DNA from: an uncultured Bacillota bacterium | Lineage (GTDB): Bacteria; Bacillota; Clostridia; Christensenellales; UBA1242 | Assembly (NCBI GenBank): GCA_947090235.1 | Contig: CAMUNJ010000001.1 | Location: 1 to 34,889 of the forward strand | Reading direction: 5' to 3' | DNA length: 34,889 bases | Shown: positions 3,230 to 18,111 of the stretch, piece after piece | Layout: every line of letters starts with the position of its first letter | Numbering within the stretch: position 1 is the first letter of the stretch | Position numbers and translations under genes: made by a program | Notes under the pieces: generated by a model | The model's input: the letters and a program-made list of their open reading frames with translations, nothing else | Told to the model about the DNA's origin: nothing | Database searches by the model: none

Positions 3230-3667
3230 ATGAAAAAATTTTTTATTTTAATTTTGCTTTGTCTATGTTTATCCGCCTCTCCTTTTGTTTTTTCTGGCTG
3301 CAAACAGCCACCTTCTCAAAATGGGGAAATAGTTTTGCCCGATGACGAAAACAATGTGGATAATGAAAATCAAGATGATGATAAGCAAGAAAATAATACT
3401 GAACTTGGGGACAAAATATTAAAAACTAAATGCACAGAAATTGTAGATATTTTACTTGAAAGTAGTTATTTTGAAAACGAAAAATCTTTTAGCATTTTAA
3501 AAAATGGTTTAGGAGGTAAAATTATTTGCCAAATGCAAACTTTAACTTTGGAAGAGTTTGGAATTTTAAATGCTTTTTTACTATCTAAATTAAATAATTT
3601 TGATGACTATATAATAAAAACTTTTATAGAACAAAATCAGTTTATTGTGACGATAAACTACAAATAA
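3230..3667 (+). CDS. lipoprotein, unknown function
   Basis: Start chosen at internal ATG 3230 (MKKFFILILLCLCLSASPFVFSGC). It has a signal peptide with lipobox FSG-C and an acidic low-complexity linker. TTGACT-17-TAAAAT at 3178-3206 would place the track start at 3197 inside the promoter. Confidence 0.6.
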   Translation: MKKFFILILLCLCLSASPFVFSGCKQPPSQNGEIVLPDDENNVDNENQDDDKQENNTELGDKILKTKCTEIVDILLESSYFENEKSFSILKNGLGGKIICQMQTLTLEEFGILNAFLLSKLNNFDDYIIKTFIEQNQFIVTINYK

Positions 3668-3701
3668 AAAACTTAAATTTTGATTACAAAATTTAAGTTT
3701 T
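3668..3701. terminator. bidirectional intrinsic terminator between the lipoprotein gene and uvrA
   Basis: AAAACTTAAATTTT-gattac-AAAATTTAAGTTTT: a perfect 14-bp stem flanked by A and T runs. Confidence 0.7.
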
Positions 3702-3705
3702 ATTT

Positions 3706-6540
3706 TTATTTATTCAAAATTTTTCTCAAAAATTGTCCTGTAAAACTTTCTGGAACAAGAGCGACTTCTTCTGGCGTTCCTTTTGCAACTATAGTTCCGC
3801 CACCACTTCCGCCTTCTGGCCCAAGATCAATTATTTGATCTGCCGATTTGATTACATCAAGGTTATGCTCAATGACAACTACACTATTTCCACTTTCTAC
3901 AAGCCTGTTCAAAATGCCAATAAGTTTGCGAACATCATACATATGAAGACCTGTTGTTGGCTCATCAAGAAGATAAATAGTCTTGCCTGTAGATTTTTTT
4001 GAAAGTTCTGTAGCAAGTTTAACCCTTTGTGCTTCACCACCAGATAGAGTTGTTGCAGATTGACCTAACTTGATATAGTCAAGGCCTACATCGTGCAGTG
4101 CCTGAACTTTGGCTTTTATTGCTGGAATATTTTCAAAGAAAGACAATGCTTCTTCGACTGTCATGTCCAGAACATCTGATATAGTTTTTCCTTTATACTT
4201 AACCTCAAGCGTTTCGTGATTATATCTATGTCCTTTACAAACTTCGCAAGGAACTGTTATATCAGGCAAGAAGAACATTTCAATCTCTTTTACGCCAGCA
4301 CCTTCGCAAGCATCACAACGCCCACCTTTTACATTAAAAGAAAATCTTCCCGGTTGATATCCACGCATTTTGGCATCAGGAGTTGAAGCAAATAATTCGC
4401 GAATAGCAGTAAACATTCCCACATAAGTTGCAGGATTAGAACGAGGAGTTCTGCCTATAGGCGATTGGTCAATGCAGATAACTTTATCTAAAAGATCAAC
4501 ATTTTCTATCTTCTTAAAAGTTCCTAATTCCAATCTAGAATTATTTAACACATTTGAAAGATAAGGATAAACTATTTCATTTATCAAACTAGACTTTCCG
4601 CTTCCAGAAACCCCTGTCACAACAGTAAATACTCCCAATGGAATGTCGACATCTATATCGCGAAGATTGTTTTCTTTCGCACCTCTAACTTTTAAAAATT
4701 TTGTAGGCTTTCGACGATTTTTAGGTGTCTCTATAACCTCTTCGCCACGCAAAAACTTGGCAGTTATTGAGTTTGAATTTTTCATAACATCTTCAACACT
4801 GCCGTTTCCAACAATTTCACCACCATGAACGCCAGCATATGGTCCAACATCCACAAGCCAATCGGCTGTGCGAATAGTATCTTCATCATGCTCAACCACA
4901 ATCAAAGTGTTGCCAAGATCACGCAAGTTTTTCATTGTTTCAATAAGCCTGTCGTTGTCGCGTTGATGAAGACCTATACTTGGCTCATCCAAAATATATA
5001 AAACACCAGAAAGACCACTACCTATCTGTGTTGCAAGTCGAATTCGCTGTGCTTCGCCACCAGATAATGTACTTGCCGAACGCGAAAGCGTAAGATAATT
5101 CAATCCAACATTGCTTAAAAATTTTAATCGTGCATTTATCTCTTTTAAAATGCTTTTTGCGATTTCAGCCTTGGCTTTGTCGAGTTTTAATCCAACAAAA
5201 TATGGTACAAGTTCGCCTACACTCATATCACAAGTGTCTGCAATGTTTTTGTTGTTTACCCTAACAGATAAAGCCGAATCGTTCAACCTATGCCCCTTAC
5301 AAACTGGACATGTTTGCTCTCGTACAAACTTGGCTATTTCTAGTTTTATAAACTCGCTTTTGCCCTCAGTTAATCTTCTTTTTAAGTTGTTGATTATCCC
5401 TTCAAAAGAAAGTGCTTTTTTGCCATTATAATGCTCAAAAGTTTTGTTTCTAGCTTCGCTATCATACAAGTCTAACTTCTCGCCATTGTTGCCGTATAAT
5501 AAAATATCCAACTTCTTTCTAGCAAGTTTTTTAACTGGCTCATCTAAATCAATGTCGTATTTCTTTGCTAAAGCGTTCAAATATCTTTGCGTCATGGAGC
5601 CTTCGTCATAACGCCAACCAGTTATGTTAAATGCCCCATCGCGAATTGAAAGATCACCATTTTTTAAAACTAAACCTTCATCAATATCTGTGACCACTCC
5701 AAGCCCAGAACAATTTGGACATGCTCCATATGGAGCATTAAAGGAGAATAATCTTGGTGAAACTTCTTCCAAAGTCCATCCACATTCAGAACATGCGTAG
5801 TTTGTTGAATAAAGTTGCTCTTCGCCCTCACAATCAACAATAACTAAACCGTCTGCGAGTTTCAAGGCCGTTTCTAGACTATCATTGAGACGCGAACGAA
5901 CTCCATCTTTCAAAACAATTCTGTCCACAACTGCTCTAATATTATGTTTAAGGTTTTTGTCTAATTCTATCTGCTCGTCCAAATTATATATACTGCCATC
6001 AACTTGGACACGAACAAATCCGCTCTTTTTTAAACTTTCAAATTGTTTTGCAAACGCACCTTTTTGTCCTCTAACAATAGGTGCTAAAATTGTAAGTTTA
6101 CTTCCCTCAGTTTTTTCAAGAATGTTGTCTATAATTTGGTCGATAGTTTGTTGCGAGATAGGTTTATGACAATGAGGACAATATGGCGTTCCTACTCTAG
6201 CAAAAAGTAAACGAATATAATCGTAAATCTCCGTCACTGTGCCAACCGTAGACCTAGGGTTATGATTGGTGGTTTTTTGGTCGATAGAAATAGCCGGACT
6301 TAAACCTTCAATAGATTCTACATCTGGTTTTTGAGCCTGTCCCAGAAATTGTCTAGCATAAGAGGAAAGACTTTCAATATATCGTCTTTGTCCTTCTGCA
6401 AAAATAGTGCCAAAAGCAAGGCTGGTTTTTCCCGAACCGCTAACACCAGTAAATACAATCAATTTGTTTTTAGGAATTTCAAGAGAAACATTTTTCAAGT
6501 TGTTTTCCCTTGCCCCACTGATAAGAATAGAATTTTTCAT
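3706..6540 (-). CDS. uvrA: excinuclease ABC subunit A
   Basis: Two ABC ATPase modules ([12 protein letters not shown] and [10 protein letters not shown]; LSGGEAQR twice) and zinc modules (CPHC, CPVC, CDAC..CEVC). Start set at [17 protein letters not shown] (6540); the 48 codons upstream in the track are low-complexity and unlike UvrA. Confidence 0.95.
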
Positions 6541-6715
6541 AACTATATTATAGCCATTTTCTTGAACAATATCAAGTAATTTATTTTTTGTTTTACTTTT
6601 GATTTTCTTCTCTTTTAAAGAAAAGAAACAAAAGAAAACTAATTTTTTATAATCACTAGTCTGGCACCTATAAATAAAAAACAATAAGTGCTATCATGCA
6701 ATTAAAGGAGGAAAA

Positions 6716-6988
6716 ATGAAACAAGATAATTTAAACCAGCACTTATATGATATTGTAGCAAAAGTTTTAAAATCTAAAATGAAAGCCCAAAATTTATCCA
6801 TAAATAAACTTAGCAAACTCTCAGGCATTTCAAATAAGACAATTTCAAATTTACTAAAAGCCAGATCTAAAAATGTTAGAATGTCTACAATATTACCTTT
6901 ATTTGATATTTTAAATATATCTACAGATAAAGATATTATAATTCCATTAAATAAAGAAAATAAATTCACAATAAAAAATTGCAAATAG
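6716..6988 (+). CDS. XRE-family helix-turn-helix protein
   Basis: 90 aa. HTH signature NLSINKLSKLSGISNKTISNLLK. Strong RBS AAAGGAGGAAAAATG. Confidence 0.7.
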   Translation: MKQDNLNQHLYDIVAKVLKSKMKAQNLSINKLSKLSGISNKTISNLLKARSKNVRMSTILPLFDILNISTDKDIIIPLNKENKFTIKNCK

Positions 6989-7017
6989 GAAAAAATTGTG
7001 TTATACTTTACTCACAT

Positions 7018-7059
7018 GTTCTCGTGGCGTAATTGTATAACGCAGTGCCCTCCTAAGGC
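7018..7059 (+). pseudogene. 5' half of a disrupted tRNA-Arg(CCU) gene (attL side)
   Basis: GTTCTCG-TG-GCGT-AATTGTATA-ACGC-A-GTGCC-CTCCTAA, then a non-tRNA sequence. It pairs with the 3' half at 16308-16345. Confidence 0.55.
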
Positions 7060-7199
7060 TTTGTTATAGCCACCCCTGAAAACCCCTAAAACCCTTGTAT
7101 TTACTAGGTTTTCTGTGGTATTATGTTTGTGTGATTTTCGTAAATCCCATACAAAAGCCATCTTCACTCCAATTTTTTATAGTTTTTTATAAGTTTTAT

Positions 7200-7274
7200 G
7201 TTCCCATAGTAAAGTGGATATTACAAACCCCTCCTAAGGGTTAGTCGGCTGTTCGAGTCAGCCTGGGAACACCA
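7200..7274 (+). tRNA. tRNA-Arg (anticodon CCU), element-borne, CCA encoded
   Basis: 75-nt cloverleaf folded by hand. Acceptor GTTCCCA/TGGGAAC; D-arm GTAA-AGTGGATA-TTAC; anticodon arm AACCC-CTCCTAA-GGGTT; variable AGTC; T-arm GGCTG-TTCGAGT-CAGCC; discriminator A; CCA. Confidence 0.9.
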
Positions 7275-7277
7275 TTT

Positions 7278-7308
7278 AAGTATCTAATCTACTAGATACT
7301 TTTTATTT
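7278..7308 (+). terminator. intrinsic terminator after tRNA-Arg
   Basis: AAGTATCTA-atctac-TAGATACTT followed by TTTATTTT. Confidence 0.65.
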
Positions 7309-7320
7309 TGTGAGGTAATA

Positions 7321-8103
7321 ATGAATATAGAATTAAAACAATATCTTGACGACAAAACAATTTTATTAGATGTTTTAGACACTTATCCTAAACATATAAA
7401 AAAGTTAATCTCAGATAATGTGCCTTCAATAAATCAATACTTTGATGAAGAACAATCTTTACATGAAAAACATTTACAAATGAATTATTTCCCAACATAT
7501 AGTGGTAATAAATATTATCAAGCATACAACTCACTTGTTGATAAAATCGTTAATGACTTGTCCGAAAATTGTTATTATGCTTTATCCTTTCATGCTACAA
7601 GATTACTAAATGAGGAAATTACCGATATTAAAACCAATGGATTCAAGTTGTTTAATAAAAATGAACATAGCAAAAAACTAGACTTACTTAATGCTTATGG
7701 TTTTAATAAATCTGAAATTGATATTCTTAAAAATTGTTCTTATGTTGAAAATGGACAAAGAAGTAATAAAGTTTACTTTTGTCATGCTATTTCTACCTTG
7801 AATTTTGATAATGGGCTTAATCCTTTTTTTAGCACTTGGGGTGGAGAAATAACCTATTGGCATAAAGATATCCCTAGCAAGATTTTGAATAGACTTAAAT
7901 GCATAGGAATCCCTTGTTTAGTTATTGCTAAATTGCCTATATTCCAAATTACATCTGTTTCATACATGATTAAATCGCTTTTACATAACTTTATTACAAA
8001 ATCACAAAAAGAAGATATTGACACATCTTTAACTACAAATGATATTGTAATTTTAGATGTTATTCCTTTTGATAAATTTGCAGGCGATAAAGTCTTAATA
8101 TAA
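7321..8103 (+). CDS. hypothetical protein (element cargo)
   Basis: 260-aa ORF with a GAGG RBS. No signal peptide or TM segment seen and no family recognised. Motif string FHATRLLNEE...KVYFCHA...WGGEITYW noted. Confidence 0.55.
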   Translation: MNIELKQYLDDKTILLDVLDTYPKHIKKLISDNVPSINQYFDEEQSLHEKHLQMNYFPTYSGNKYYQAYNSLVDKIVNDLSENCYYALSFHATRLLNEEITDIKTNGFKLFNKNEHSKKLDLLNAYGFNKSEIDILKNCSYVENGQRSNKVYFCHAISTLNFDNGLNPFFSTWGGEITYWHKDIPSKILNRLKCIGIPCLVIAKLPIFQITSVSYMIKSLLHNFITKSQKEDIDTSLTTNDIVILDVIPFDKFAGDKVLI

Positions 8104-8123
8104 TTTCATGTCGAAACATTATC

Positions 8124-8156
8124 AATGCTAGGATACGATATTTCGCACCTAGCATT
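8124..8156. terminator. bidirectional terminator hairpin between orf260 and int
   Basis: AATGCTAGG-15 nt-CCTAGCATT followed by TTATTTTTATT. Confidence 0.55.
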
Positions 8157-8191
8157 TTATTTTTATTAAGTTTTTGTGTATCTCAATAACA

Positions 8192-9613
8192 TTACAAATA
8201 TTTTGTCAACAATTCTTGTGATGCCTTAACATCTTTTGAAAAGTGTGTGTAAATTTTTAATGTTGTATTTTTGTCGGCATGACCTGCCATTTGTGCAACA
8301 CCATTTACAGGTGCACCATTTGTGATAAGTCTTGTTATCCATGTGTGTCGTATCTTGTGATTTGATACAACTGTGACATTTGCTTCCAAAAGGTATTTTT
8401 GTAATAAGTAGTTTAGGTATTGTGGGAACTTTGGTGTGCCATCAACATTACAAAAGATATAGCCTCTTTTATCAAACTTTTTGTCGGCTTTTTTAAGTTC
8501 TTCATATTTGTCTTTGAATAATTGTAATTTTTCTGCTAATAAATCACTTATAAATAATTTTCTTGCTGATTTTTCTGTTTTTGTATCTCTATCATAAACG
8601 CCATGTTTTGGAGTGTAAACTCTGTCTCTGCATACACTTAAAACACGATTTTCTAAATCAATATCTTCCCATTTAAGACCACACACTTCGGCAGTTCTGA
8701 GCCCTAATTGAGCCATAATATACAAAGGTATAGTATTCCAAATAAGATTGAGTGATTTTCCTTCATCACTTAACCTGTTATCCGCTTCCTTTAATGTCTC
8801 TATTAACTTGTCATATTCTTCACTTGTCAATATCTTTGCTTCTTCGGTTTTTCTTCCACCTATACTATCTTTTGTATAAACACTTGAAGCATAGTTTGAA
8901 GTCACTAATTCGTTTTTGATTGCATAATTGAAAATTGCACTTAATGTATGTTGGTATTTTAGTATTGTTTCTTTTGCATAACCCTTTTCAACTACAATCT
9001 TTTCAAAAAATTCTTTTATACTTATTTTTAATAAACTACAAATTTTCTCGGCACTACTATATGCAATAGGCTCTCCATGTGTAGCATAGTAAAATACAGG
9101 GCGTGATAATATTCCGTCTCTTTCCGCCTTTCTCGCACCGCCATTTGCTTTTATACATTCCTTAAACTCATCAAGTTTATATTCTTTTACTTTTGCGGTA
9201 ATAGTTTTGTAAGTATATTCGTTTAGATAAGTGATAAATTGTTGTATTTCGTGAGCCCTTAAATCTACAAATCTTACATCTCCAAAATATTCGGTCATTC
9301 TTTTAATGCAATCTTCTGATCGCAAAATATAGTTTAATGATACCCTGTGTTTAACATTTCGTAGCCACTCATTTGCTACTTGATTAAAACTTGCATTGCT
9401 TAACTTGTGGGTATGACCATTTTTATATTCTGTTTCCCATGTTTCTCCAAAAGCAATCGCAGCCTTTTTTGCTCTTTCGCCTGTAAGATTGTTAGGGTTC
9501 TTCCAAGTTGTATTAACAAACTTATCTCTACCTAAATAGTCCTTTACCTTTATTTGTATTCCGTATGTTATATGACCATCTTTTTTTGCTATTCTTTTTT
9601 CATATGTTGCCAT
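8192..9613 (-). CDS. int: tyrosine recombinase / integrase (Tn916-like architecture)
   Basis: 473 aa. Catalytic signature: LRTAEVCGLKWEDIDL (Arg box), HKIRHTWITRL (HxxR), GHADKNTTLKIYTH (Tyr). N-terminal arm-binding-like domain. Adjacent to the tRNA att site. Confidence 0.9.
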   Translation of the reverse strand: MATYEKRIAKKDGHITYGIQIKVKDYLGRDKFVNTTWKNPNNLTGERAKKAAIAFGETWETEYKNGHTHKLSNASFNQVANEWLRNVKHRVSLNYILRSEDCIKRMTEYFGDVRFVDLRAHEIQQFITYLNEYTYKTITAKVKEYKLDEFKECIKANGGARKAERDGILSRPVFYYATHGEPIAYSSAEKICSLLKISIKEFFEKIVVEKGYAKETILKYQHTLSAIFNYAIKNELVTSNYASSVYTKDSIGGRKTEEAKILTSEEYDKLIETLKEADNRLSDEGKSLNLIWNTIPLYIMAQLGLRTAEVCGLKWEDIDLENRVLSVCRDRVYTPKHGVYDRDTKTEKSARKLFISDLLAEKLQLFKDKYEELKKADKKFDKRGYIFCNVDGTPKFPQYLNYLLQKYLLEANVTVVSNHKIRHTWITRLITNGAPVNGVAQMAGHADKNTTLKIYTHFSKDVKASQELLTKYL

Positions 9614-9614
9614 T

Positions 9615-10028
9615 TTATAATACTCCTTTTAATTTCATTTGTTCTTCGGCTCTTTGCTGTGCCATTTTTAGATACATTTTGTGTGTTTCTTTTTCGCTTT
9701 CTTTGTAAAAGCATTTTGCAGCCCATGTTGTTTTCTTTTTCTTAGTGGGGAACCTATATTCAGCGGTCTCATATGGTATAAAACTATATCTAAACCCACT
9801 TTCTTTTTCTGCTATAAGTTCAGTAAGTTTTTCTAACAATAGTGTTTCAAGGTCTTTGCCTTCAAGGTATTTTCGGTTTCTTATAGACCTTTCAAACAAT
9901 CTTACTTCGCCTGAAGCCGTATCCCTAAATTGTGCTTTAAGTGTGTATATAATGGGTTTTTCGCCAATCATTTGCATTAAGCCATTGTCTAACACGCTTA
10001 CATATTTTTCTAAATTTTTAATTTCCAT
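9615..10028 (-). CDS. hypothetical protein co-transcribed with int
   Basis: 137-aa ORF whose stop lies 1 nt before the int start. No family recognised. Confidence 0.55.
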   Translation of the reverse strand: MEIKNLEKYVSVLDNGLMQMIGEKPIIYTLKAQFRDTASGEVRLFERSIRNRKYLEGKDLETLLLEKLTELIAEKESGFRYSFIPYETAEYRFPTKKKKTTWAAKCFYKESEKETHKMYLKMAQQRAEEQMKLKGVL

Positions 10029-10046
10029 TTTTTTACTCCGTATGTT

Positions 10047-10235
10047 TTAGTTTTCACATAATTTGATTTTTAGAAAGTCGCATAGACTTTCAAGTTGGAT
10101 TAAAAACTTTGAGCCTATATTAAGCACTGTGATTTGGTTTGTTTGACACAAAACTCTCAAATAATATTTTGTTAGTGCTGTGTTAGGGTCAAGTTCTTTT
10201 AAGTAAGCATAGGCTTGCTCAATTGTCCTATACAT
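10047..10235 (-). CDS. excisionase-like / MerR-type small HTH DNA-binding protein
   Basis: 62 aa. TIEQAYAYLKELDPNTALTKYYLRVLCQTNQITVLNIGSKFLIQLESLCDFL matches the pattern of small excisionase-family HTH proteins. It is the first gene of the xis-orf-int operon. Confidence 0.5.
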   Translation of the reverse strand: MYRTIEQAYAYLKELDPNTALTKYYLRVLCQTNQITVLNIGSKFLIQLESLCDFLKIKLCEN

Positions 10236-10374
10236 AATGCCGTCCTCCTTTTATTAGTATTGTTTATCTCTTTGAGAAAGCCAAATGAAATGCCCTAAAA
10301 ACGGGATTTATTTTTTGGTTTTCACTTTAATTTAGTGGTCGATTATAAAATCAAGCCGATTTTTAACACTTTTT

Positions 10375-10461
10375 TGTTAACATTTACTTGCATAAATTTG
10401 AAAATCGCCTTATAATAGGACTATCTAAAAACATTTTTAATGTAAATAAATGTTAACATTT
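10375..10461 (+). promoter_or_regulatory. promoter plus operator sites of the element's XRE regulator
   Basis: TTGCAT (10388-10393), 17 nt, TATAAT (10411-10416). Perfect 14-bp palindrome AAATGTTAACATTT at 10448-10461 abutting the RBS, and a second copy TGTTAACATTT at 10375-10385 just upstream of the -35. Confidence 0.6.
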
Positions 10462-10471
10462 GGAGGTATTT

Positions 10472-11062
10472 ATGGCTACATTTGAAATTGGGGATAAAAT
10501 AAAAAGCCTGAGAAAGATAATGGGACTCTCTCAGGATGAACTAACAAAAAAAGTCGGCTATAAAAGTCGACAATATATTGCTGATATTGAAAATAATAAA
10601 ACTAAACCTAGTTTTGACTTTGTAATGACTTTTGCTTTGATTTTCAAAAAACTAACTAAACTACCTTTTAGTTTTATCAATTTGGCTAATCCACAAAAAG
10701 ATTATAAAGCAGTTTTTGAAAGTAAATTTACTGAGAAATCTTATATCGATTATGACCTTATCAATACTGAGATTGCCGACAAGTTTCAAAACAATGAGAC
10801 TATTGCTCGCACTGATGTTGTAATTGAAAACTTACTAGGCTCTGATATTTTTGCTGACTTGATAAACCACATTGTAGATTATCTTAACTATGGGTTCTAC
10901 TTAAAGTATTTGAAACAACAAATTGAAGATAATCCAGACAAACCTAATATAAGACTTCAAAATGAGATAAATATCACTAAAAACAAACTTAAAGATATTA
11001 AGCAAAATTTCCCATTGCTTGTTGCCCAACTTCAAAATGATGTTTTGTTAGATATTGTTTAG
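10472..11062 (+). CDS. XRE-family HTH regulator with C-terminal extension
   Basis: Start at ATG 10472 with GGAGG RBS at 10462-10466 (the track start at 10460 is a TTG inside the RBS). HTH LSQDELTKKVGYKSRQYIADIENNKTKPS. Confidence 0.7.
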   Translation: MATFEIGDKIKSLRKIMGLSQDELTKKVGYKSRQYIADIENNKTKPSFDFVMTFALIFKKLTKLPFSFINLANPQKDYKAVFESKFTEKSYIDYDLINTEIADKFQNNETIARTDVVIENLLGSDIFADLINHIVDYLNYGFYLKYLKQQIEDNPDKPNIRLQNEINITKNKLKDIKQNFPLLVAQLQNDVLLDIV

Positions 11063-11152
11063 CCTTTTGCACGGCTTTTTATGTTCTCATGGTCGATTTA
11101 ACCACATAAACTCTTTTGCCTGTTCTCACGCCATTTGCAGGCACTTGCAGGG

Positions 11153-11410
11153 CTATCTAATGGTTGCAAGTGTAGGGTAAAGTATATTGTATAACAAGTT
11201 TCCGCCAGCAATGTAGTTATTGTGGCTATCATTTGTATTTCTTCCATTAAAAATTGCTAGCAGTTTATTATTGTTATTGTATAAATACAAATAGTTTCCA
11301 TTTTGTCCTATTTTGCCTATTCTATTTCCATTGTTATCAAAGCAAATTGAAATAATACCTGCTTTTATATAGCCTATTCTTTTGCCTAGTTTATCATACA
11401 AATATAACAT
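11153..11410 (-). CDS. small repeat protein (four ~20-aa repeats; possibly 4-fold beta-flower type)
   Basis: Repeats LYLYDKLGKRIGYI / ISICFDNNGNRIGKI / LYLYNNNNKLLAIF / NNYIAGGNLLYNI. Start moved to ATG 11410 because the upstream TTG codons lie inside the terminator stem of the preceding gene. Confidence 0.45.
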   Translation of the reverse strand: MLYLYDKLGKRIGYIKAGIISICFDNNGNRIGKIGQNGNYLYLYNNNNKLLAIFNGRNTNDSHNNYIAGGNLLYNILYPTLATIR

Positions 11411-11414
11411 AAAA

Positions 11415-11445
11415 ACCGTCTCCAAATAATTATAACGGAGACGGT
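11415..11445 (-). terminator. intrinsic terminator after the SHOCT membrane gene
   Basis: Plus strand ACCGTCTCC-13 nt-GGAGACGGT. On the minus strand the stem is followed by TTTTT. Confidence 0.6.
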
Positions 11446-11459
11446 TATTTTTGATTGTC

Positions 11460-12473
11460 TTATAAATCTTTTAACAAACTTTCTTTTTTATTGTTATATT
11501 CTTCTTCGGTCAAAACTCCTGCATCAAAAAGTTCTTTCAGTTTTAGCAGTTTACTTGTAGCATCATTTGTTTCAGTTTTATTTTCTTCAAGTTTCTTTTC
11601 GCATTGTTTTTTAATGTGATCGGCATTATCAATAGCCTTTTGCTTTTCTTCTTTTTTAATAATTCTATTGAGTTCAAATGAATATTGTGTCTTGTATGTG
11701 AGCCAGATTATACCCACATAGAATATAAGTGCAAAGATATTTAGCATATATCGAACTGAAATTTCAGAGGTATCTCGTTCAAACATAGACGCTGCAAAGT
11801 AAATAATATTTGCAATAAAGCCATAAACCGCACTTAATGTTACATTACATTTTAGATTTTTTCTTGTCCCAATAATAATGGCTAAAATAACTTGTATTAT
11901 TTCGACTATTAAAATAAAGATAACTAAAAACAATGGACTAACCCCGAAAGGACTCTTTGTAATTGCTATATAAAGACTTTGTAGTATGCTCATAAAAACT
12001 ATACCTAAACTACAAAATGCTACATACATAAGCCTTATCTTTTGTGCTTGTTTAGACTCTTTATCAATGTGTTCTTTAAGTCTTTCATTATACACTAGTT
12101 CATATTCAGATTTTTTTGAGCAGAAAAATAAAATCGCTGAAACTAATAATAGGGTCATTTGAAACACACCCAAGCCTATATATGTTCCGCTTGATTTATT
12201 CAAGCCAAAAACATCATAGCATTGAAGGGCTATAAACATTATGTTTAATATTCCATATGTCCTTAAATTGCTTGTCCTTTCACCTATACAAGCCCTTATT
12301 CCAAATAATAAAAATATTACAGGCAATAATAATTGAATGTAATCAAAAGGGCTTTTTTCATATGGGAACATTGAATATATGTAAAACACAAATAACACTG
12401 CCAAAAACCAATATACAGCCCCTATGATTTGAATAATACCGCCTGCGAGAGATAAACCTGTTCGTTTTTTCAT
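11460..12473 (-). CDS. polytopic membrane protein (about 8 TM, two 4-TM halves) with C-terminal SHOCT domain
   Basis: Hydrophobic segments run throughout, and a coiled-coil-like linker follows. The C-terminal LKELFDAGVLTEEEYNNKKESLL matches the SHOCT short C-terminal domain pattern. Start at the second ATG (12473), 7 nt after GGAG. Confidence 0.7.
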   Translation of the reverse strand: MKKRTGLSLAGGIIQIIGAVYWFLAVLFVFYIYSMFPYEKSPFDYIQLLLPVIFLLFGIRACIGERTSNLRTYGILNIMFIALQCYDVFGLNKSSGTYIGLGVFQMTLLLVSAILFFCSKKSEYELVYNERLKEHIDKESKQAQKIRLMYVAFCSLGIVFMSILQSLYIAITKSPFGVSPLFLVIFILIVEIIQVILAIIIGTRKNLKCNVTLSAVYGFIANIIYFAASMFERDTSEISVRYMLNIFALIFYVGIIWLTYKTQYSFELNRIIKKEEKQKAIDNADHIKKQCEKKLEENKTETNDATSKLLKLKELFDAGVLTEEEYNNKKESLLKDL

Positions 12474-12531
12474 ATGCATACTCCTTTATTCAGTCATTAT
12501 ACTTTATTTCGCTCTAAAAAGGCAAACGATT

Positions 12532-12579
12532 TTAAGCCAACGGCTTAATTTTATGTAATTTTTTAAGCCATAGGCTAAA
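12532..12579. promoter_or_regulatory. two palindromic operator-like sites upstream of a small XRE gene
   Basis: TTAAGCC-aac-GGCTTAA (12532-12548, perfect) and TTAAGCC-ata-GGCTAAA (12563-12579). Centres are 31 bp apart. Confidence 0.55.
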
Positions 12580-12587
12580 ATTGGCAT

Positions 12588-12818
12588 ATGATATATGTTA
12601 AAGATAAAAACCTTGAAGATAGTATAAGACATAGACTTGTTGAAGCCATAAAGTTAAGCGGTATGACGCAAACCGAGATAGCAAAAAAGGCTCACATTAC
12701 AAGTGCAAGCCTTTCTGATTATATTCATAAAACTAAAATGCCGAGCATTGAAACCTTTGCTCTCATTTGTGATGCAATAGATGTTTCTGCTGATGAGATT
12801 TTAGGGTTACGAAACTAA
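12588..12818 (+). CDS. small XRE-family HTH protein
   Basis: 76 aa. MTQTEIAKKAHITSASLSDYIHKTKMPSIETFALICDAIDVSADEILG. Convergent with the KAP gene, with 2 nt between the stops. Confidence 0.7.
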   Translation: MIYVKDKNLEDSIRHRLVEAIKLSGMTQTEIAKKAHITSASLSDYIHKTKMPSIETFALICDAIDVSADEILGLRN

Positions 12819-12820
12819 TA

Positions 12821-14995
12821 TTATTTATTTTTCTTTTGCTTCAAATATTTCTTCATTTTAGATTTTGAAAATTGATCATCGTCATCATATTTCTCATATG
12901 ACATCATAAATGCCACCTTATACAAATTATCATTACTATCTAAATCAATATCTGGATTAAAATCTTTTGTTAAAATTTTATAAATTCTTTCAATGTCAAA
13001 ATCTTCGCTTAATTTGCTGCTAAACCCATAAGTCTTTTCACAACTGCCTGTAAGAAGTTGTCCACAAGAGCAAAAGTTTTTAATAAATTTTAGAATATTT
13101 GTTTCTTCTTTTAATAATTTTTCCACAAAATCATCACAAAGTTGTTTGTTTATAGTGTGCATTAGATAATAATACTGGTTATATTCAGGTTCATCAAAAT
13201 TTAATTTGTTAAAAACAAAATTTTGTAAATTGTCCTTTATCAAATTTTCAATTAGTTTTGTCTCTTCAATAGTTAATATAGGATTGTCATTATTCTCTCC
13301 ATTGTTTGATTTCACTCTACCATTTTCTATTTGAAGTGATCGCAAAAATTCTACCTTAACTAAATTTACCTCTCCATTTTCATAAAATTCTTTTATAAAA
13401 TTAAAGACATTCATGGTATCTTTATTTTTCTTCAAATAGTTTCGAAGAATATAAGATATTTGTCTATCGCAATCAGTTGAAAATGCTTCAAATTCAACTT
13501 TTTCTTTTTGTATTTCATTTGTAATTTCCATTAACCAGTTTATAATATCGACAACTCTATTTTTGCTCAATTTATTTTCTACATAATAAGCTATGTAATA
13601 CATAAAAGGAGACAACTGTTTTTGTTGGTTTAGCTTCCTTACAAACGCAATAAAATCTTCTTTATTGTATTTTTCAATGATTTCTTCTATTTGATTTTTA
13701 TTATATAGTAATTCATTTTCATTGAATTGAAAATAGTTATCAAAGTTTTCTTCAATATACATAAAGCCCCTTATTTTAGCTTCTTGATAATGATAAGTTG
13801 TATAGCCCCAAAATTTACTATCGACTTGCCAAACTTTTGGAAATAAAAAACTCAATGCTTCATTTATGAAATCTAAATCTTCTTTTGTAAATTGATTTTT
13901 TAATGTATCGTAAAATTTATTAAGAGATTCTCTTACTTGTTTTCTCTTACTATCATCTCTTTCGTATGGAGAATATGTGCCATTTAATAATTCTTTGTTA
14001 TTTGAAACAAAATTATAAACTTGTGGGAATTTAAGTTCTAGTAATGTTATAATGCAAAAATCATGAAAATCAACATTGTCTTTTAATGCTTCAAATTTTA
14101 AGTTAAACACATTACAAAACCTATTTACATCTCTTAAAGTTATAAATTGTTGCCAAAATCCAGTTCTTGCAAAATCGCTATTTCTTGAAGTTAAAAATTC
14201 ATTTAATTTGGCACAACTTTTGTTAAGATTATCTATTAGGGCTTGTGTGATTTTTATTGGCGACACTTCAGGTATATTAATAGGTAATTGAACTATTTTT
14301 TCTAAATAAGTCTCTGCATGTTCCTTTTGCGAATTTTGTAAAGCAGACACTATAACTTTCTTATCCATAGATAATACATATATTACATTCTCAAAATTCC
14401 CTACGAGTTTTACCAACTGAAAGATTTGGCATATTTCAATATCATTAAGCCTATCCACATCATCAATAAATATAACAATCTTCTTTTCTAACTTCGTTAA
14501 TGCTTTTGATATTTTATTTTTTATTTCTTCTAACGATTTACTATAAGTAAGATTATTTAATGTTTCACCATATTCTTTTACTAATGGAGCAATAATAGTG
14601 GCGAATGGCGATATAACAGGCACATATTTCCCCAAAGTGAATATTTGTCCAGCTCTCTTAAAAAAATTTCCAAGTTTTGAAAACAGCTTATGGTAATCAA
14701 CCATATCTAACTGTATATAAAACTCCTTAAAAAAACATTGCAACAGTTCGTCTTGTCCTTTGAAATTCCATGGGTTAAAATGAATTGTTTTATATCCTTT
14801 TTTAGATAGTTCTTTTGATGCTATATTTATAATAGATGTTTTTCCAGATCCCCATTTACCATATAATCCTATAGTTAAAGATTCTTTGTTGCTGTATGAA
14901 GTTATGTTTGCTACAAAATTGTCTATAAATTTTTTTCTTCCTAAAATATCTTCTTCAATCTTTTCTATTGGCTTATCAACACTTAAATTTTCCAT
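12821..14995 (-). CDS. KAP-family P-loop NTPase
   Basis: Walker A GLYGKWGSGKTS is preceded by DILGRKKFIDNF, typical of KAP N-termini. Walker B-like VIFIDDVDRL. A long alpha-helical C-terminal region follows. Start at ATG 14995 with AAGGAGA RBS. Confidence 0.85.
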   Translation of the reverse strand: MENLSVDKPIEKIEEDILGRKKFIDNFVANITSYSNKESLTIGLYGKWGSGKTSIINIASKELSKKGYKTIHFNPWNFKGQDELLQCFFKEFYIQLDMVDYHKLFSKLGNFFKRAGQIFTLGKYVPVISPFATIIAPLVKEYGETLNNLTYSKSLEEIKNKISKALTKLEKKIVIFIDDVDRLNDIEICQIFQLVKLVGNFENVIYVLSMDKKVIVSALQNSQKEHAETYLEKIVQLPINIPEVSPIKITQALIDNLNKSCAKLNEFLTSRNSDFARTGFWQQFITLRDVNRFCNVFNLKFEALKDNVDFHDFCIITLLELKFPQVYNFVSNNKELLNGTYSPYERDDSKRKQVRESLNKFYDTLKNQFTKEDLDFINEALSFLFPKVWQVDSKFWGYTTYHYQEAKIRGFMYIEENFDNYFQFNENELLYNKNQIEEIIEKYNKEDFIAFVRKLNQQKQLSPFMYYIAYYVENKLSKNRVVDIINWLMEITNEIQKEKVEFEAFSTDCDRQISYILRNYLKKNKDTMNVFNFIKEFYENGEVNLVKVEFLRSLQIENGRVKSNNGENNDNPILTIEETKLIENLIKDNLQNFVFNKLNFDEPEYNQYYYLMHTINKQLCDDFVEKLLKEETNILKFIKNFCSCGQLLTGSCEKTYGFSSKLSEDFDIERIYKILTKDFNPDIDLDSNDNLYKVAFMMSYEKYDDDDQFSKSKMKKYLKQKKNK

Positions 14996-15072
14996 AGTTT
15001 TCTCCTTACTTACATTATAGCACACTTAGCCCCTTAGTTTATATAAAAATTATAACTTTGGGGCTATTATTT

Positions 15073-15116
15073 TGCAAATAGGGACTGTCACAAACTTTCT
15101 CGCCACTGCAAATAGG
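15073..15116. repeat. direct repeat TGCAAATAGG x2 in the KAP-Rep intergenic region
   Basis: Identical 10-mers at 15073-15082 and 15107-15116, next to the inverted repeat TAGCCCC (15027-15033) / GGGGCTA (15060-15066). Confidence 0.6.
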
Positions 15117-15188
15117 TCTAAAATGGCTGAGATAAACTATTTAATATAAATTTATTATATTAAATGTCAATGCTCCTTAAAAGGCAGA

Positions 15189-16061
15189 TTATATAGGTGT
15201 TCGCTTACCTAATCCATAAGACTTTGTTCGTTCTTTTTTATAATACTCTTTACAATAGTATAGGTTGTTGCCCCTGTGAGAGTGCATAGGATTAAGATAT
15301 ACATTTTTTCTTTCAAATACATAACTATTTTCTTTAAGGTATTTTTTCACATTTTCATAAGTATCCGTGTGAATTACAGGCTTTTTAAGCCCTTTTGAAT
15401 ATCTATAAAGGTTTTGTCCAGTTGGTAGTTCCATTTGCATTAGTGCTTTATAGTGCATATGACTATTTTTATTTGTCACTTCATTTGATAAGTGAGGAGT
15501 CACATAATAGTATACATCTTTTTTAGTTTTAGGTTTTTTCCCAAACTTTATAAACCCATGACCCCATATCTCTGCTATTATTGTGTCAGGTATATAAACA
15601 ATCTTTTTAGACTCATTAAAGAAAATTATTGCGTGTATATGATAGCCACCATTATCTAATTCAAGTGTGTTTATATATTCTATTGTTCCAAATTCAGTTA
15701 TTCTTCGCCTTAATCGTTTCATAAAGGACTTAAAATCTTCGTTTATTTTCTTCATATCTAATGTCTTTTCTCTGTAAGTGAACGTTATCAAAAGTATATG
15801 ATTTAAATTTACAGTATTCTCTTTAATTAAATCTTGTAGTTTAATATTGCTTTCAAGCAAACTATAAAGGCTTTCGCCTCGTTTTGCAGTTTTCTTTTCT
15901 TCTGTGATTTCGCCTGTTTGAATATTAACTCTTTTACCATTTCCAATTCTTCTTGAAACAGGTTTACGATTACACATATTAATATTGTGTAATATTACTT
16001 CATCTCTAACGACTCTTACTTTAACAAGGTCGCTTTCTTTTATTAAATTATTCTTTTCCAT
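15189..16061 (-). CDS. rep: HUH-type rolling-circle replication initiator (Rep)
   Basis: 290 aa. Motif 1-like LLITFTY, HUH motif GGYHIHAIIFF, Tyr-rich segment VYYYVTPHL, and LYRYSKGLKKP near the C-terminus. Confidence 0.6.
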   Translation of the reverse strand: MEKNNLIKESDLVKVRVVRDEVILHNINMCNRKPVSRRIGNGKRVNIQTGEITEEKKTAKRGESLYSLLESNIKLQDLIKENTVNLNHILLITFTYREKTLDMKKINEDFKSFMKRLRRRITEFGTIEYINTLELDNGGYHIHAIIFFNESKKIVYIPDTIIAEIWGHGFIKFGKKPKTKKDVYYYVTPHLSNEVTNKNSHMHYKALMQMELPTGQNLYRYSKGLKKPVIHTDTYENVKKYLKENSYVFERKNVYLNPMHSHRGNNLYYCKEYYKKERTKSYGLGKRTPI

Positions 16062-16071
16062 TTTAATCTCC

Positions 16072-16116
16072 TTAACTTAACATCTACCCTGATGTTTTAA
16101 TTTTTATTTAAGTTAA
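16072..16116. repeat. inverted repeat in the Rep leader (candidate origin or RBS-occluding hairpin)
   Basis: TTAACTTAA (16072-16080) and TTAAGTTAA (16108-16116) form a perfect 9-bp pair. An inner hairpin CATC-taccct-GATG lies between them. It abuts the rep RBS (CTCC at 16068-16071 on the plus strand). Confidence 0.5.
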
Positions 16117-16298
16117 AGAGTAAAGACGGTTTTTATATCTTTCGTGCCATACTAAAAATGCTACTCATGGAACAAAAGTTATTTGAAGTTTTTGACAAAA
16201 GCACAAACTTTGTATTATACTATGAAAAACTATTTGATAATACATAATAGATATGTGTATTTCAAAAGTTATTCAATGGGACTTCGGTGGCTAATTGC

Positions 16299-16345
16299 CC
16301 CTCCTAAGGCAAAGATTCCCGGTTAGACTCCGGGCGGGAACACCA
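16299..16345 (+). pseudogene. 3' half of the disrupted tRNA-Arg(CCU) gene (attR side)
   Basis: CCCTCCTAAGGC core, then GGCAA-AGATT-CCCGG-TTAGACT-CCGGG-CGGGAAC-A-CCA. No matching 5' half lies locally. Confidence 0.55.
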
Positions 16346-16373
16346 AAAAAAAACATGCTTATGCATGTTTTTT
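16342..16373. terminator. bidirectional terminator (tRNA remnant / rluA-type gene)
   Basis: A-run, AAACATGC-ttat-GCATGTTT, T-run. It overlaps the stop codon of the minus-strand gene. Confidence 0.65.
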
Positions 16374-17193
16374 ATTTCAGCCATTCTGGTTTTTTGGTGA
16401 AAACGCGTTTATTGAGATATTCTAATTCTCCTATCAAGCCATCAAGTTTTAGATAAGTACAATATAATTGTTGCGTTTTCTTTTTAAATTTTTTGTTGTC
16501 TTCATTCTTGCCATACTTGCCATCACCTATTATTGGATGCCCTAAATATGCGAGATGTGCTCGAATTTGATGAGTTTTTCCTGTCAAGAGGTCACATTCT
16601 ACAATACTACTTGTTGGATTTGATTTTATAGTCTTAAAGCCAGTCCTTATTTCCTCGCGTCCTCTGCCAGAATTTGCAAAAACTCTAACAAGACTTGTTT
16701 CACTATCTTTGCCAAGATAAGCCTTATATATTTCGCCCTTAAAGTCGGTTGCCCCCACAACTTCGGCTAGATATTTCTTTGTTATGGTATGTTTTTTAAA
16801 GGCGTTTAAAAGGATTTCTTTAGCAACCTTATTTTTAGCCATAATCATAAGCCCTTCAGTGTTGCGGTCTAATCTGTGCACAGCCATTGCACCTTTAATT
16901 CGACCTTCGAGTCCATCTACACCCTCAACTTCAACGCCTGTTTTTTTATCTAAAACAATAATGTTGTCGTCTTGAAAGATAATATCATAACCTTGATTTA
17001 ACCCACCATTCTCATAAAAAACAGTGATGACGCGTCCCTTTTCAATTGTAATATTGTCTTTAATTCGAATATCATCAATTTTAACATCTTTATTTCTCAA
17101 AAGTTTACAAACATAGTTGTATGAAAAACCCTTTTTGCAGAGGATGTCCGCAATTTTTTCTTGTCTATCATTTACAAAATTTAACTTTTCCAT
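16372..17193 (-). CDS. RluA-family pseudouridine synthase with N-terminal S4-like domain
   Basis: HRLDRNTEGLMIMAKN (catalytic Asp motif) and KTHQIRAHLAYLGHPIIGDGKYG. Confidence 0.85.
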   Translation of the reverse strand: MEKLNFVNDRQEKIADILCKKGFSYNYVCKLLRNKDVKIDDIRIKDNITIEKGRVITVFYENGGLNQGYDIIFQDDNIIVLDKKTGVEVEGVDGLEGRIKGAMAVHRLDRNTEGLMIMAKNKVAKEILLNAFKKHTITKKYLAEVVGATDFKGEIYKAYLGKDSETSLVRVFANSGRGREEIRTGFKTIKSNPTSSIVECDLLTGKTHQIRAHLAYLGHPIIGDGKYGKNEDNKKFKKKTQQLYCTYLKLDGLIGELEYLNKRVFTKKPEWLK

Positions 17194-17282: not shown

Positions 17283-17537
17283 ATGAACGAACTTATAACT
17301 ATCGAAAACTCATCTAGCATTTCTATCAATGGTGCAACTAAAGTTGTATCATCAACTCAAAATCAAGGGATTGTTGAGACCAAAGAAAACACAATTATAA
17401 TTACTGGCAGTGAACTTGAAGTTCGCAAACTTGATCTTGAAAACTGCGAGGTTAGTTTTATTGGCAAGATAACAAACATTAAATTTACAAGTCTTGGCGG
17501 CAACAAAGTACCTTTATTAAAGCGTCTTTTCAAATAA
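17283..17537 (+). CDS. yabP: sporulation protein YabP
   Basis: 84 aa. ITGSELEVRKLDLENCEVSFIGKITNIKF matches the YabP pattern. A YabQ-like membrane gene follows. Confidence 0.75.
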   Translation: MNELITIENSSSISINGATKVVSSTQNQGIVETKENTIIITGSELEVRKLDLENCEVSFIGKITNIKFTSLGGNKVPLLKRLFK

Positions 17538-17712
17538 CGAACCTAATGTTCGTCGACTATCAACCGACTTATATAATACTCTAAACTTTATCCCTCCAAA
17601 TAAGTCAAATGTTTGTTGACTATCTACTAAGCAGTTTTAAATAATGTATCTTTTCAACTCAAAACGCAAAACACAAACTTCTAAAACGCCAAGCAAATTA
17701 AAAAAGGACAAA

Positions 17713-18111
17713 ATGTTATATCCCACTTTAAATCAACCTTATGTATTTTTTGTTATTCTACTTGCCGGATTGGTTAGTGGCTTTTTGTTTGACTTATCTA
17801 ATTTTTTGAATATCTTTTTTAATCGCAACAAGGTAACCAAACAAATTTTATATTTTTTAGCAACCATTTCAAGTGCATTTCTACTAGTATTATGCAACAT
17901 TTTATGCAACTATGGAATTTTTAGAATTTTTATAATCTTAACTTTTCTCACAGCCTTTATTCTTCAAAGATTTACATTAGGATCTTTGATAAGCGTAGCA
18001 ATAAGCAAGGTAAGTAAGATCAAACTTCCAAAACTAAAACTTCGCAAAACAAAAACCTCCTCCAGCGAGACGGTACAAGAAAACCTTAACGATAATTCTC
18101 CTCTAAAATAA
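17713..18111 (+). CDS. yabQ: spore cortex biosynthesis protein YabQ-like (3-4 TM)
   Basis: Position after yabP and small hydrophobic character. Start placed at ATG 17713 (AAGGA upstream); the track start at 17644 adds a Lys-rich non-hydrophobic leader with no RBS. Confidence 0.5.
   Translation: MLYPTLNQPYVFFVILLAGLVSGFLFDLSNFLNIFFNRNKVTKQILYFLATISSAFLLVLCNILCNYGIFRIFIILTFLTAFILQRFTLGSLISVAISKVSKIKLPKLKLRKTKTSSSETVQENLNDNSPLK

Follow-up and report, generated by a model that had tools for sequence, protein, structure and literature searches.

A plasmid-like integrative element of Clostridia that splits a tRNA-Arg(CCU) gene and carries a complete tRNA-Arg(CCU)

Introduction

A 34,889-nt stretch of DNA from an uncultured Bacillota bacterium (GenBank assembly GCA_947090235.1, contig CAMUNJ010000001.1), termed the window (W) here, is chromosomal DNA of a low-GC, spore-forming Clostridia-type bacterium. 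In it a 77-nt host tRNA-Arg(CCU) gene is cut in two. The halves are found at positions 7018–7059 and 16311–16345, and the 9,251 bp between them (7060–16310) contain a tyrosine integrase gene and another, complete tRNA-Arg(CCU). The locus raises the question of how a tRNA gene came to be divided in this way and whether the second tRNA is its replacement. The answer reached here is that, very probably, an element integrated in the anticodon loop of the tRNA-Arg(CCU) gene without rebuilding the gene, and carries a complete replacement tRNA. The split itself, an empty site, a short core, the intact element tRNA, intact motifs in the integrase and the replication initiator (Rep), and the recurrence of the layout in the integrase family are all observed directly. 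Contigs compared with the window are numbered L001, L002 and so on.

Structure of the junctions

The features at and next to the two junctions are:

6979–7007, plus strand: promoter-like site of the host tRNA gene, TTGCAA-17-TATACT with a TG extension (consensus scan, 9/12 plus TG), a putative promoter
7018–7059, plus strand: attL, host tRNA-Arg(CCU) 5′ half, with acceptor, D-arm, 5′ strand of the anticodon stem and loop CTCCTAA, with the 12-nt core 7048–7059 at its end; equal to the 5′ part of the intact L019 allele
7060–7199, plus strand: left arm of the element (P′ arm), from the core to the element tRNA, holding TAGCCACC; about 95% identical to L002 from the core on, with unrelated flanks
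7200–7274, plus strand: complete element tRNA-Arg(CCU) (ARAGORN tRNA-Arg(CCT); Rfam tRNA 60.5 bits)
16062–16298, plus strand: right arm of the element (P arm), with the repeated motif CAAAAGTTATT and the inverted-repeat half GGTGGCTA at 16286–16293 (right-arm alignment)
16299–16345, plus strand: attR, 12-nt core 16299–16310, then the host tRNA 3′ half to CCA; equal to the intact L019 allele

On inspection of the sequence, no T-arm follows the 5′ half; the sequence that is found there instead is not tRNA. The 3′ half ends with the 3′ strand of the acceptor stem, CGGGAAC (16335–16341), the discriminator A (16342) and CCA (16343–16345). No tRNA is called at 7018 or at 16299 by ARAGORN or by Rfam at E ≤ 1; when rejoined, the halves give a 77-nt tRNA-Arg(CCT) with ARAGORN. 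In both the acceptor stem and the anticodon stem, each half has its pairing partner in the other half and not in the tRNA at 7200 (ARAGORN and sequence inspection). The promoter-like site is situated 10 nt upstream of the 5′ half and now faces into the element.

The anticodon loop proper, CTCCTAA, occupies 7050–7056 and 16301–16307. It is part of the 12-nt core CCCTCCTAAGGC, of which the window has two copies only, at 7048 and 16299 (0 expected from 100 shuffles). The identity between attP and attB consists of this 7-nt loop and a few flanking bases, 12 nt in W and 8–12 nt in relatives. The reconstructed attP is GGTGGCTA-ATTGC-CCCTCCTAAGGC-TTTGTTA-TAGCCACC, with GGTGGCTAATTGCCCCTCCTAAGGCTTTGTTATAGCCACC as the predicted sequence, and displays a perfect 8-bp inverted repeat about the core (GGTGGCTA at 16286–16293 and TAGCCACC at 7067–7074). 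An alignment of the left arms shows blocks conserved across lineages, CCATACA..CCAT.TT, which are candidate arm sites of the integrase.

An uninterrupted allele

The RluA-like protein adjoining attR, used as a query, gave a 98%-identical protein (P0055) on three Logan contigs of one study, L018, L019 and L020. In L019 the tRNA is uninterrupted, and every base equals that of 7018–7059 joined to 16311–16345. A comparison of L019 with the window minus 7060–16310 yields a single 2,223-nt high-scoring segment pair with 96.8% identity, and L019 represents a strain with approximately 97% nucleotide identity. The intact allele scores 56.7 bits on the Rfam tRNA family RF00005 (gathering score 29). The occupied attR junction is reproduced in L018 and L020, which are independent assemblies. 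Of importance, the two tRNA halves in the window are free of mutations relative to the intact allele, thus precise excision would restore the gene.

A preliminary description of the locus, made from the sequence alone, had proposed a 5′ half at 7018 with no T-arm after it, a 3′ half at attR as part of the same gene, a 12-mer common to both junctions, an 8-bp inverted repeat that brackets the core in the joined inner flanks, and an intact tRNA-Arg(CCU) at 7200–7274 inside an element that does not rebuild the gene at attL. Each of these is borne out: by sequence inspection, by the ARAGORN call and the Rfam score of the identical L019 allele, by the presence of CCCTCCTAAGGC at 7048 and 16299 only, by GGTGGCTA/TAGCCACC, and by the ARAGORN call and Rfam score of the element tRNA, respectively. 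The checks to which it had pointed include an empty site with 7018–7059 directly continuous with 16311–16345 and tRNA scores for the reconstructed gene and for 7200–7274. L019 is such a site, and the scores are the 56.7 bits (identical L019 allele) and 60.5 bits given above.

It could be argued that the boundaries have been misread, and that the locus is a classical gene-rebuilding island in which the half at 7018 is unrelated to the gene or a product of misassembly. Islands of the classical type do greatly outnumber all others (PMC4383910). However, no tRNA 3′ half follows the core at attL, the stems of the halves pair mutually, the attR junction recurs in independent assemblies, and the empty site joins exactly these halves. 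The last point already refutes a misreading, which is left with a negligible probability.

The element of L018, which is from the same species, is 88–94% identical to the W element, against 96.5% identity of the host flanks. In addition, the gene for a PifA-like KAP nucleoside triphosphatase (NTPase) at window positions 12821–15025 is replaced in L018 by an unrelated 253-aa gene (12207–12968). These differences suggest cargo swapping or independent acquisitions.

Other variation is found beside the tRNA gene. Approximately 300 nt to the left of the tRNA promoter (window 6675–6971) are unrelated to the L019 counterpart (reverse-complement 64–355), and this variable spot contains a 90/96-aa open reading frame (ORF) in the window and a 76-aa HTH_26 gene in L019. 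L021, with 92% RluA identity, carries a different island at the same anticodon-loop position (10822–16664) with DUF6680, AbiEii and the type I restriction-modification protein HsdM; the contig ends short of the other junction of that island.

The host tRNA-Arg(CCU) has U19 and A56 (window 7031–7039 and 16324–16330) in place of the near-universal G19 and C56, which are found in the tRNA of the related metagenome-assembled genome L001 (7050–7126). The two changes compensate each other in the tertiary pair between D-loop and T-loop. U19/A56 is also present in the intact L019 allele (2099–2175), and the T-loop TTAGACT in the L021 3′ half as well, so these bases are a feature of the lineage. Decay after disruption was considered as an explanation for the odd D- and T-loops of the split gene and was rejected, as the intact L019 allele has the same bases.

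Related elements

A search gave approximately 24 relatives of the integrase with 27–93% identity, and contigs were examined for eight of these via a protein index, together with one GenBank record. A shared layout is found in nine integrase lineages (W/L002/L018; L003; L004–L006; L007–L010; L011–L013; L014–L015; L016; L017; L022). On the left side, the host tRNA-Arg(CCT) 5′ half and CTCCTAA are followed by the element arm and, 175–533 nt inside, a complete tRNA-Arg(CCT). The interior consists of optional cargo, the integrase gene (int), small ORFs, regulators and variable defence cargo, which among relatives includes Nmad3, TIR, NB-ARC, HEPN_AbiU2, PIN and SduA. The right side consists of Rep, CTCCTAA and the host 3′ half. 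The stretch common to attL and attR is 8–12 nt in the family and element lengths are 7.2–10.2 kb. Rejoined halves form a valid tRNA-Arg(CCT) in W, L003, L007, L011 and L014. The general claim of the preliminary description, that the element splits the tRNA at the anticodon loop without rebuilding it and carries its own tRNA-Arg(CCU), is thus supported by the empty site of L019, by L002 and by eight further integrase lineages.

L002 has an integrase that is 93% identical to that of W. Homology between L002 and W starts exactly at the core, with 19/40 identities before it and 38/40 after it, and extends approximately 230 nt, through the tRNA. The host tRNA 5′ half of L002 is quite different. As the homology starts at the core and is joined to a different host half, the arm-plus-tRNA unit is part of the mobile element and is not a local host gene.

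In L017, three tandem tRNA-Arg(CCT) 5′ halves, each with an element-type arm, are situated ahead of an intact tRNA, which is followed by SduA_C and PIN cargo, a tRNA 3′ fragment with the loop CTCCTAT, and the integrase (reverse-complement coordinates 4722, 5077, 5338, 5606–5678 and 8715–8770). This looks like the pattern expected from incoming elements that used the tRNA of a resident element as attB. With three stacked 5′ halves before the intact tRNA, the earlier suggestion that the element tRNA is a secondary att site is plausible. L004 has no host 3′ half; the sequence after its attR core (reverse-complement 17534–17799; original 3597–3862) is not tRNA and includes a further arm-like stretch, and an additional intact tRNA-Arg(CCT) is found 222 nt beyond, adjoining host genes. 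The extra tRNA is possibly an arm-plus-tRNA relic of an older element. L004 and L017 show that element decay does occur at such loci.

Host and element tRNA sequences are mixed among the relatives. The host tRNA of L007 and the element tRNA of W share 95% identity, and the 5′ half in L022 matches the element tRNA of L003 at 100%. Between the element tRNA of L003 and the tRNA of its own host the identity is 89% and the promoter hexamers are the same, which favours capture from a host. In a test for relics of older elements, no element-type arm is found upstream of the L007 and L022 host halves, and the exchange may have run in either direction.

L003 also contains the host tRNA 3′ end and downstream terminator region twice, approximately 200 nt apart, beyond attR (original 3560–3960). 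The duplication may be a trace of a different element, with the 3′ end of this tRNA as its target.

The assemblies L009, L013 and L016 break at or within approximately 70 nt of att cores; the first bases of L016 are CTCCTAA, and the start of L009 is 30 nt (k-1 for Logan) ahead of the branch point. Such breaks could reflect mixed occupied and empty or circular forms in the samples and are no proof of them.

Searches beyond these contigs gave few hits. Neither the RluA-like protein nor the integrase of the window is on record as an exact protein, and the relatives come from homology searches. No relatives of the integrase are present in IMG/VR. The 5′-half 21-mer has no match in JGI metagenome contigs and one match in GTDB representative genomes, L001, which is an intact homologue in a different genomic context. 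MT835493, a 57-kb record labelled "Bacteriophage sp.", carries the same module. It was considered as a true phage with the module, and no such link was established, with 0 structural proteins among the 10 largest ORFs searched.

The element tRNA and AGG decoding

The element tRNA lies 140 nt inward of attL and has the orientation of the split host gene. On its 3′ side the sequence reads as an AT-rich hairpin (7279–7286 / 7293–7300) followed by a T-run (7301–7309). The host tRNA promoter faces the element tRNA, which is 180 nt downstream with no obvious terminator between them, and expression via read-through from this promoter is possible. Near-consensus promoters of their own are found ahead of the element tRNAs in L003, L014 and L017.

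AGG is used at 4.5 per 1000 codons in host genes (12% of Arg codons) and at 6.6 per 1000 in element genes (19%), a small difference that is based on 17 and 28 codons. With this use of AGG in host genes, the tRNA matters to the host.

The element tRNA may instead serve mainly another purpose, either AGG decoding for the element genes or as a spare or decoy against anticodon-loop nucleases, with replacement of the host tRNA as an incidental effect. The somewhat commoner AGG in element genes fits this explanation, as do the defence cargo of the elements (PifA-like, Nmad3, TIR, HEPN and PIN) and an anti-defence idea raised in the paper on tRNA-dependent lysogeny itself (Guerrero-Bustamante and Hatfull, mBio 2024; PMC10865867). 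However, AGG use differs little, and a nuclease specific for the loop would attack the element copy too, since the host and element loops are identical (CTCCTAA). In every lineage examined, moreover, the anticodon of the element tRNA is that of the destroyed tRNA, and the element tRNA forms a fixed module beside attP. This explanation is therefore considered unlikely, and replacement of the split gene is the preferred one.

Genes of the element

The coding content of the element is:

7321–8103, plus strand: cargo ORF, 260 aa, in a variable slot between the tRNA and int; no Pfam or PADLOC match
8192–9613, minus strand: tyrosine integrase, 473 aa (PF00589, E = 1.6e-28)
9615–10028, minus strand: conserved 137-aa ORF in an operon with int; homologues in the same place in L002, L003, L004, L016 and L018
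10047–10235, minus strand: candidate excisionase (recombination directionality factor), 62 aa, just upstream of int in all lineages
10460–11062, plus strand: repressor-like HTH_3 regulator, 200 aa (PF01381, E = 8e-10; PHROG transcriptional repressor), divergent from the xis-int operon
11153–11425, minus strand: 90-aa ORF with no family matches (Pfam, PHROGs)
11460–12479, minus strand: 339-aa cargo protein with a C-terminal SHOCT domain (PF09851, E = 1.4e-08)
12588–12818, plus strand: HTH_3 regulator, 76 aa, beside the defence gene (PF01381, E = 7.5e-11)
12821–15025, minus strand: KAP-family P-loop NTPase, PifA-like anti-phage defence cargo (PF07693, E = 8.5e-48; PADLOC PifA, E = 5.1e-78)
15189–16061, minus strand: plasmid-type rolling-circle (HUH) replication initiator (PF23343, 53 bits with a cut-off of 27.8; PHROG "rolling circle DNA replication initiation")

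In an alignment of 11 family members the integrase residues R306, K345, H419, R422, H445 and Y455 are invariant and form the catalytic R-K-H-R-H/W-Y set. The Rep displays an invariant H141-I-H143 as well as invariant Y186, Y219 and Y235, candidates for the catalytic Tyr of HUH initiators (7 sequences). Its nearest annotated relatives are the Reps of 1.5–2.7 kb cryptic Firmicute plasmids, with approximately 30% identity. The preliminary description had listed a tyrosine integrase, an excisionase (Xis)-like helix-turn-helix (HTH) protein and an HUH Rep. The first and last are confirmed by PF00589 and by PF23343 with the H-I-H motif; the Xis-like HTH is seen only through homologues of the 62-aa ORF, 3 of 10 of which match HTH_17 (best E = 5.7e-07). 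A profile of the Xis-like family gave nothing significant against PDB.

In L002 nothing occupies the slot between the tRNA and int, and in L004 HEPN_AbiU2 is found there. The interval of the 90-aa ORF has as its L018 counterpart an 88-aa gene (14377–14643) between the SHOCT gene and a 196-aa HTH gene; the L018 interval aligns to W 11391–12809 at 88.5%. Among the element ORFs searched with Pfam, PHROGs and PADLOC there are no matches to capsid, tail, terminase or lysis genes. There is likewise no FtsK/SpoIIIE-type match among the element ORFs searched with Pfam, and neither a relaxase nor an oriT was identified in the element. The most fitting description is an integrative rolling-circle plasmid-like element, or one like the integrative mobilizable elements (IMEs), with defence cargo.

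The flanking host genes encode UvrA, two class II aminoacyl-tRNA synthetases, an RluA-family pseudouridine synthase, YabP and YabQ. The synthetases are paralogues of the Asp/Asn/Lys type in tandem on the minus strand (150–1538 and 1550–2827).

Discussion

In the mechanism proposed here, the element integrase recombined attP with the anticodon loop of the host tRNA-Arg(CCU) gene. As the element has no tRNA 3′ half beside the attP core, integration leaves two non-functional halves, at attL and at attR. Decoding of AGG would be kept by the complete element tRNA-Arg(CCU), just downstream of the promoter of the split gene. This tRNA may owe its expression to a weak promoter of its own, to read-through from that of the host gene, or to both, and would functionally complement the split gene. 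The 62-aa protein and the integrase may together excise the element and restore the host gene precisely, and the excised circle may replicate via the HUH Rep.

Several points weigh against this mechanism. In W the element tRNA has a weak promoter match of its own (8/12). Complementation may be unnecessary, as the host, seen here as a 35-kb window, may have other tRNA-Arg(CCU) genes or an AGG-reading tRNA-Arg(UCU). The window's own 62-aa ORF has no significant family match and no HTH_17. Finally, the circular junction was not found, either as an exact 40-nt sequence in viral contigs or as shorter attP/attL patterns in viral and metagenome contigs; since only assembled contigs were searched, the missing circle is no evidence against excision.

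The missing circle would also fit a fixed, immobile relic, with the tRNA at 7200–7274 now the permanent tRNA-Arg(CCU) gene of the host, and relics do accumulate, e.g. L004, without a host 3′ half and with an extra arm-like stretch and tRNA, and L017 with its stacked 5′ halves. However, samples of one study differ at the site, which is empty in L019 and occupied in L018 and L020. The halves equal the intact allele, the two cores agree in every base, and the motifs of integrase and Rep are complete. Variants of the element at the same site have also diverged further than their host flanks and have swapped cargo, a sign of recent mobility or turnover. A relic at this locus is therefore quite improbable, and a mobile element with a replacement tRNA is the preferred reading. 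The preliminary description had further held that the host would depend on the element; as worded this is doubtful and probably overstated, because precise excision would restore the gene. Dependence on the element tRNA would hold only during integration or after decay of the element.

The closest known system is tRNA-dependent lysogeny, in which tyrosine integrases act at 8–17 bp cores, no tRNA is found at attL, and the cognate phage tRNA is required for viable lysogens, a mechanism that is experimentally proven (PMC10865867). The phages are Fionnbharth (K4), Cluster L, Cain (K6), Gaia (X) and Gordonia CQ2/DL phages, which target tRNA-Lys, tRNA-Ile2 and tRNA-Leu, and the trait is patchy in clusters and subclusters, e.g. 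6 of 22 K6 phages (PMC10865867). Common to both systems are a tyrosine integrase, attB in a host tRNA gene, a short core and a carried tRNA with the same anticodon, all of which are present here, and tandem integration with the element's own tRNA as attB is suspected for the phages too (PMC10865867). The carrier differs: here it is a 7–10 kb non-phage element of Clostridia with a rolling-circle Rep and defence cargo, and the 9.25-kb W element, with ORFs only for integrase, regulators, Rep, and defence or unknown genes, is not a temperate phage. The target here is tRNA-Arg(CCU), and the element tRNA is situated 175–533 nt from the core and is co-oriented. The trait is present in every sampled family member, and so appears to be a conserved design of the integrase family and not an occasional variant.

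Similar cases in phages have been reported as bioinformatic observations. Prophage Lj965 of Lactobacillus johnsonii, as cited in PMC10865867, is reported not to rebuild the tRNA at the junction and to carry a cognate tRNA. A 2013 review mentions disrupted genes that are complemented by prophage tRNAs (PMC3714127), and in Sinorhizobium meliloti phage-related sequences are described as substitutes for host tRNA genes (PMC11476347). The Lj965 and S. meliloti cases are prophages or phage-related regions and are likened to the present element by description. Classical class I tRNA islands (Williams 2002; PMC4383910) likewise have the crossover in the 7-nt anticodon loop with the anticodon stem as a symmetric core-type site, and a displaced tRNA fragment at the far end of the island. 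However, attP of classical elements carries the 3′ part of the tRNA and the gene is regenerated, whereas in the present element 12 nt are in common and none of the gene is regenerated: at attL the 5′ half is followed by sequence that is not tRNA.

Other small elements show similarities in gene content. The Streptomyces element pSAM2, an actinomycete integrative and conjugative element (AICE), is small, is inserted in a tRNA gene and combines an HUH rolling-circle initiator with a tyrosine integrase and a small excisionase-like protein. Its tRNA-Pro target is rebuilt. An FtsK-like Tra protein, as in pSAM2-like AICEs, has no match among the element ORFs searched here. Firmicute IMEs also combine an integrase, a small excisionase-like protein and an HUH initiator in a tRNA gene, as here (PMC5357655). 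Satellites of the phage-inducible chromosomal island (PICI) type are characterized by int, a repressor, xis and a replication module together with genes for the redirection of helper-phage packaging. The element has an integrase, HTH regulators, an Xis-like protein and a Rep; no terS or capsid-remodelling homologues are detected in the element with Pfam and PHROGs, three ORFs being without annotation, and the integrase is approximately 24% identical to Streptococcus satellite integrases.

In the literature covered, which falls short of all journals, the trait is undescribed for non-phage plasmid-like integrative elements, for Clostridia and for tRNA-Arg(CCU). Thus the mechanism is already published, and the carrier, the host phylum, the isoacceptor and the fixed attP-tRNA module are new. 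With this finding, tRNA-dependent integration reaches beyond temperate actinobacteriophages, to a plasmid-like, non-viral element with defence genes, to Firmicutes, and to a rare-codon tRNA-Arg(CCU). Standard island finders would misplace the boundaries of such elements, because they seek a regenerated tRNA and a displaced fragment, and in tRNA annotation the element tRNA would pass for a host gene. As a compact unit, attP-tRNA-int could be used as an integration vector for Clostridia that provides the selection for its own maintenance.

A more speculative idea, for which we have limited confidence, is that the attP-arm-tRNA cassette is a relay that turns over the host tRNA-Arg(CCU) gene. A replacement tRNA behind the host promoter would serve the cell as its tRNA-Arg(CCU) and offer the next element a place to insert; 5′ halves would pile up with each insertion, and after decay of the element bodies foreign tRNAs would remain in the role of the host gene. 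If this is true, plasmid-like defence carriers keep rewriting one tRNA locus across Clostridia. The stacked halves of L017, together with the mixed host and element tRNA sequences, suggest that mobile elements are one route by which conserved tRNA genes get foreign replacements.

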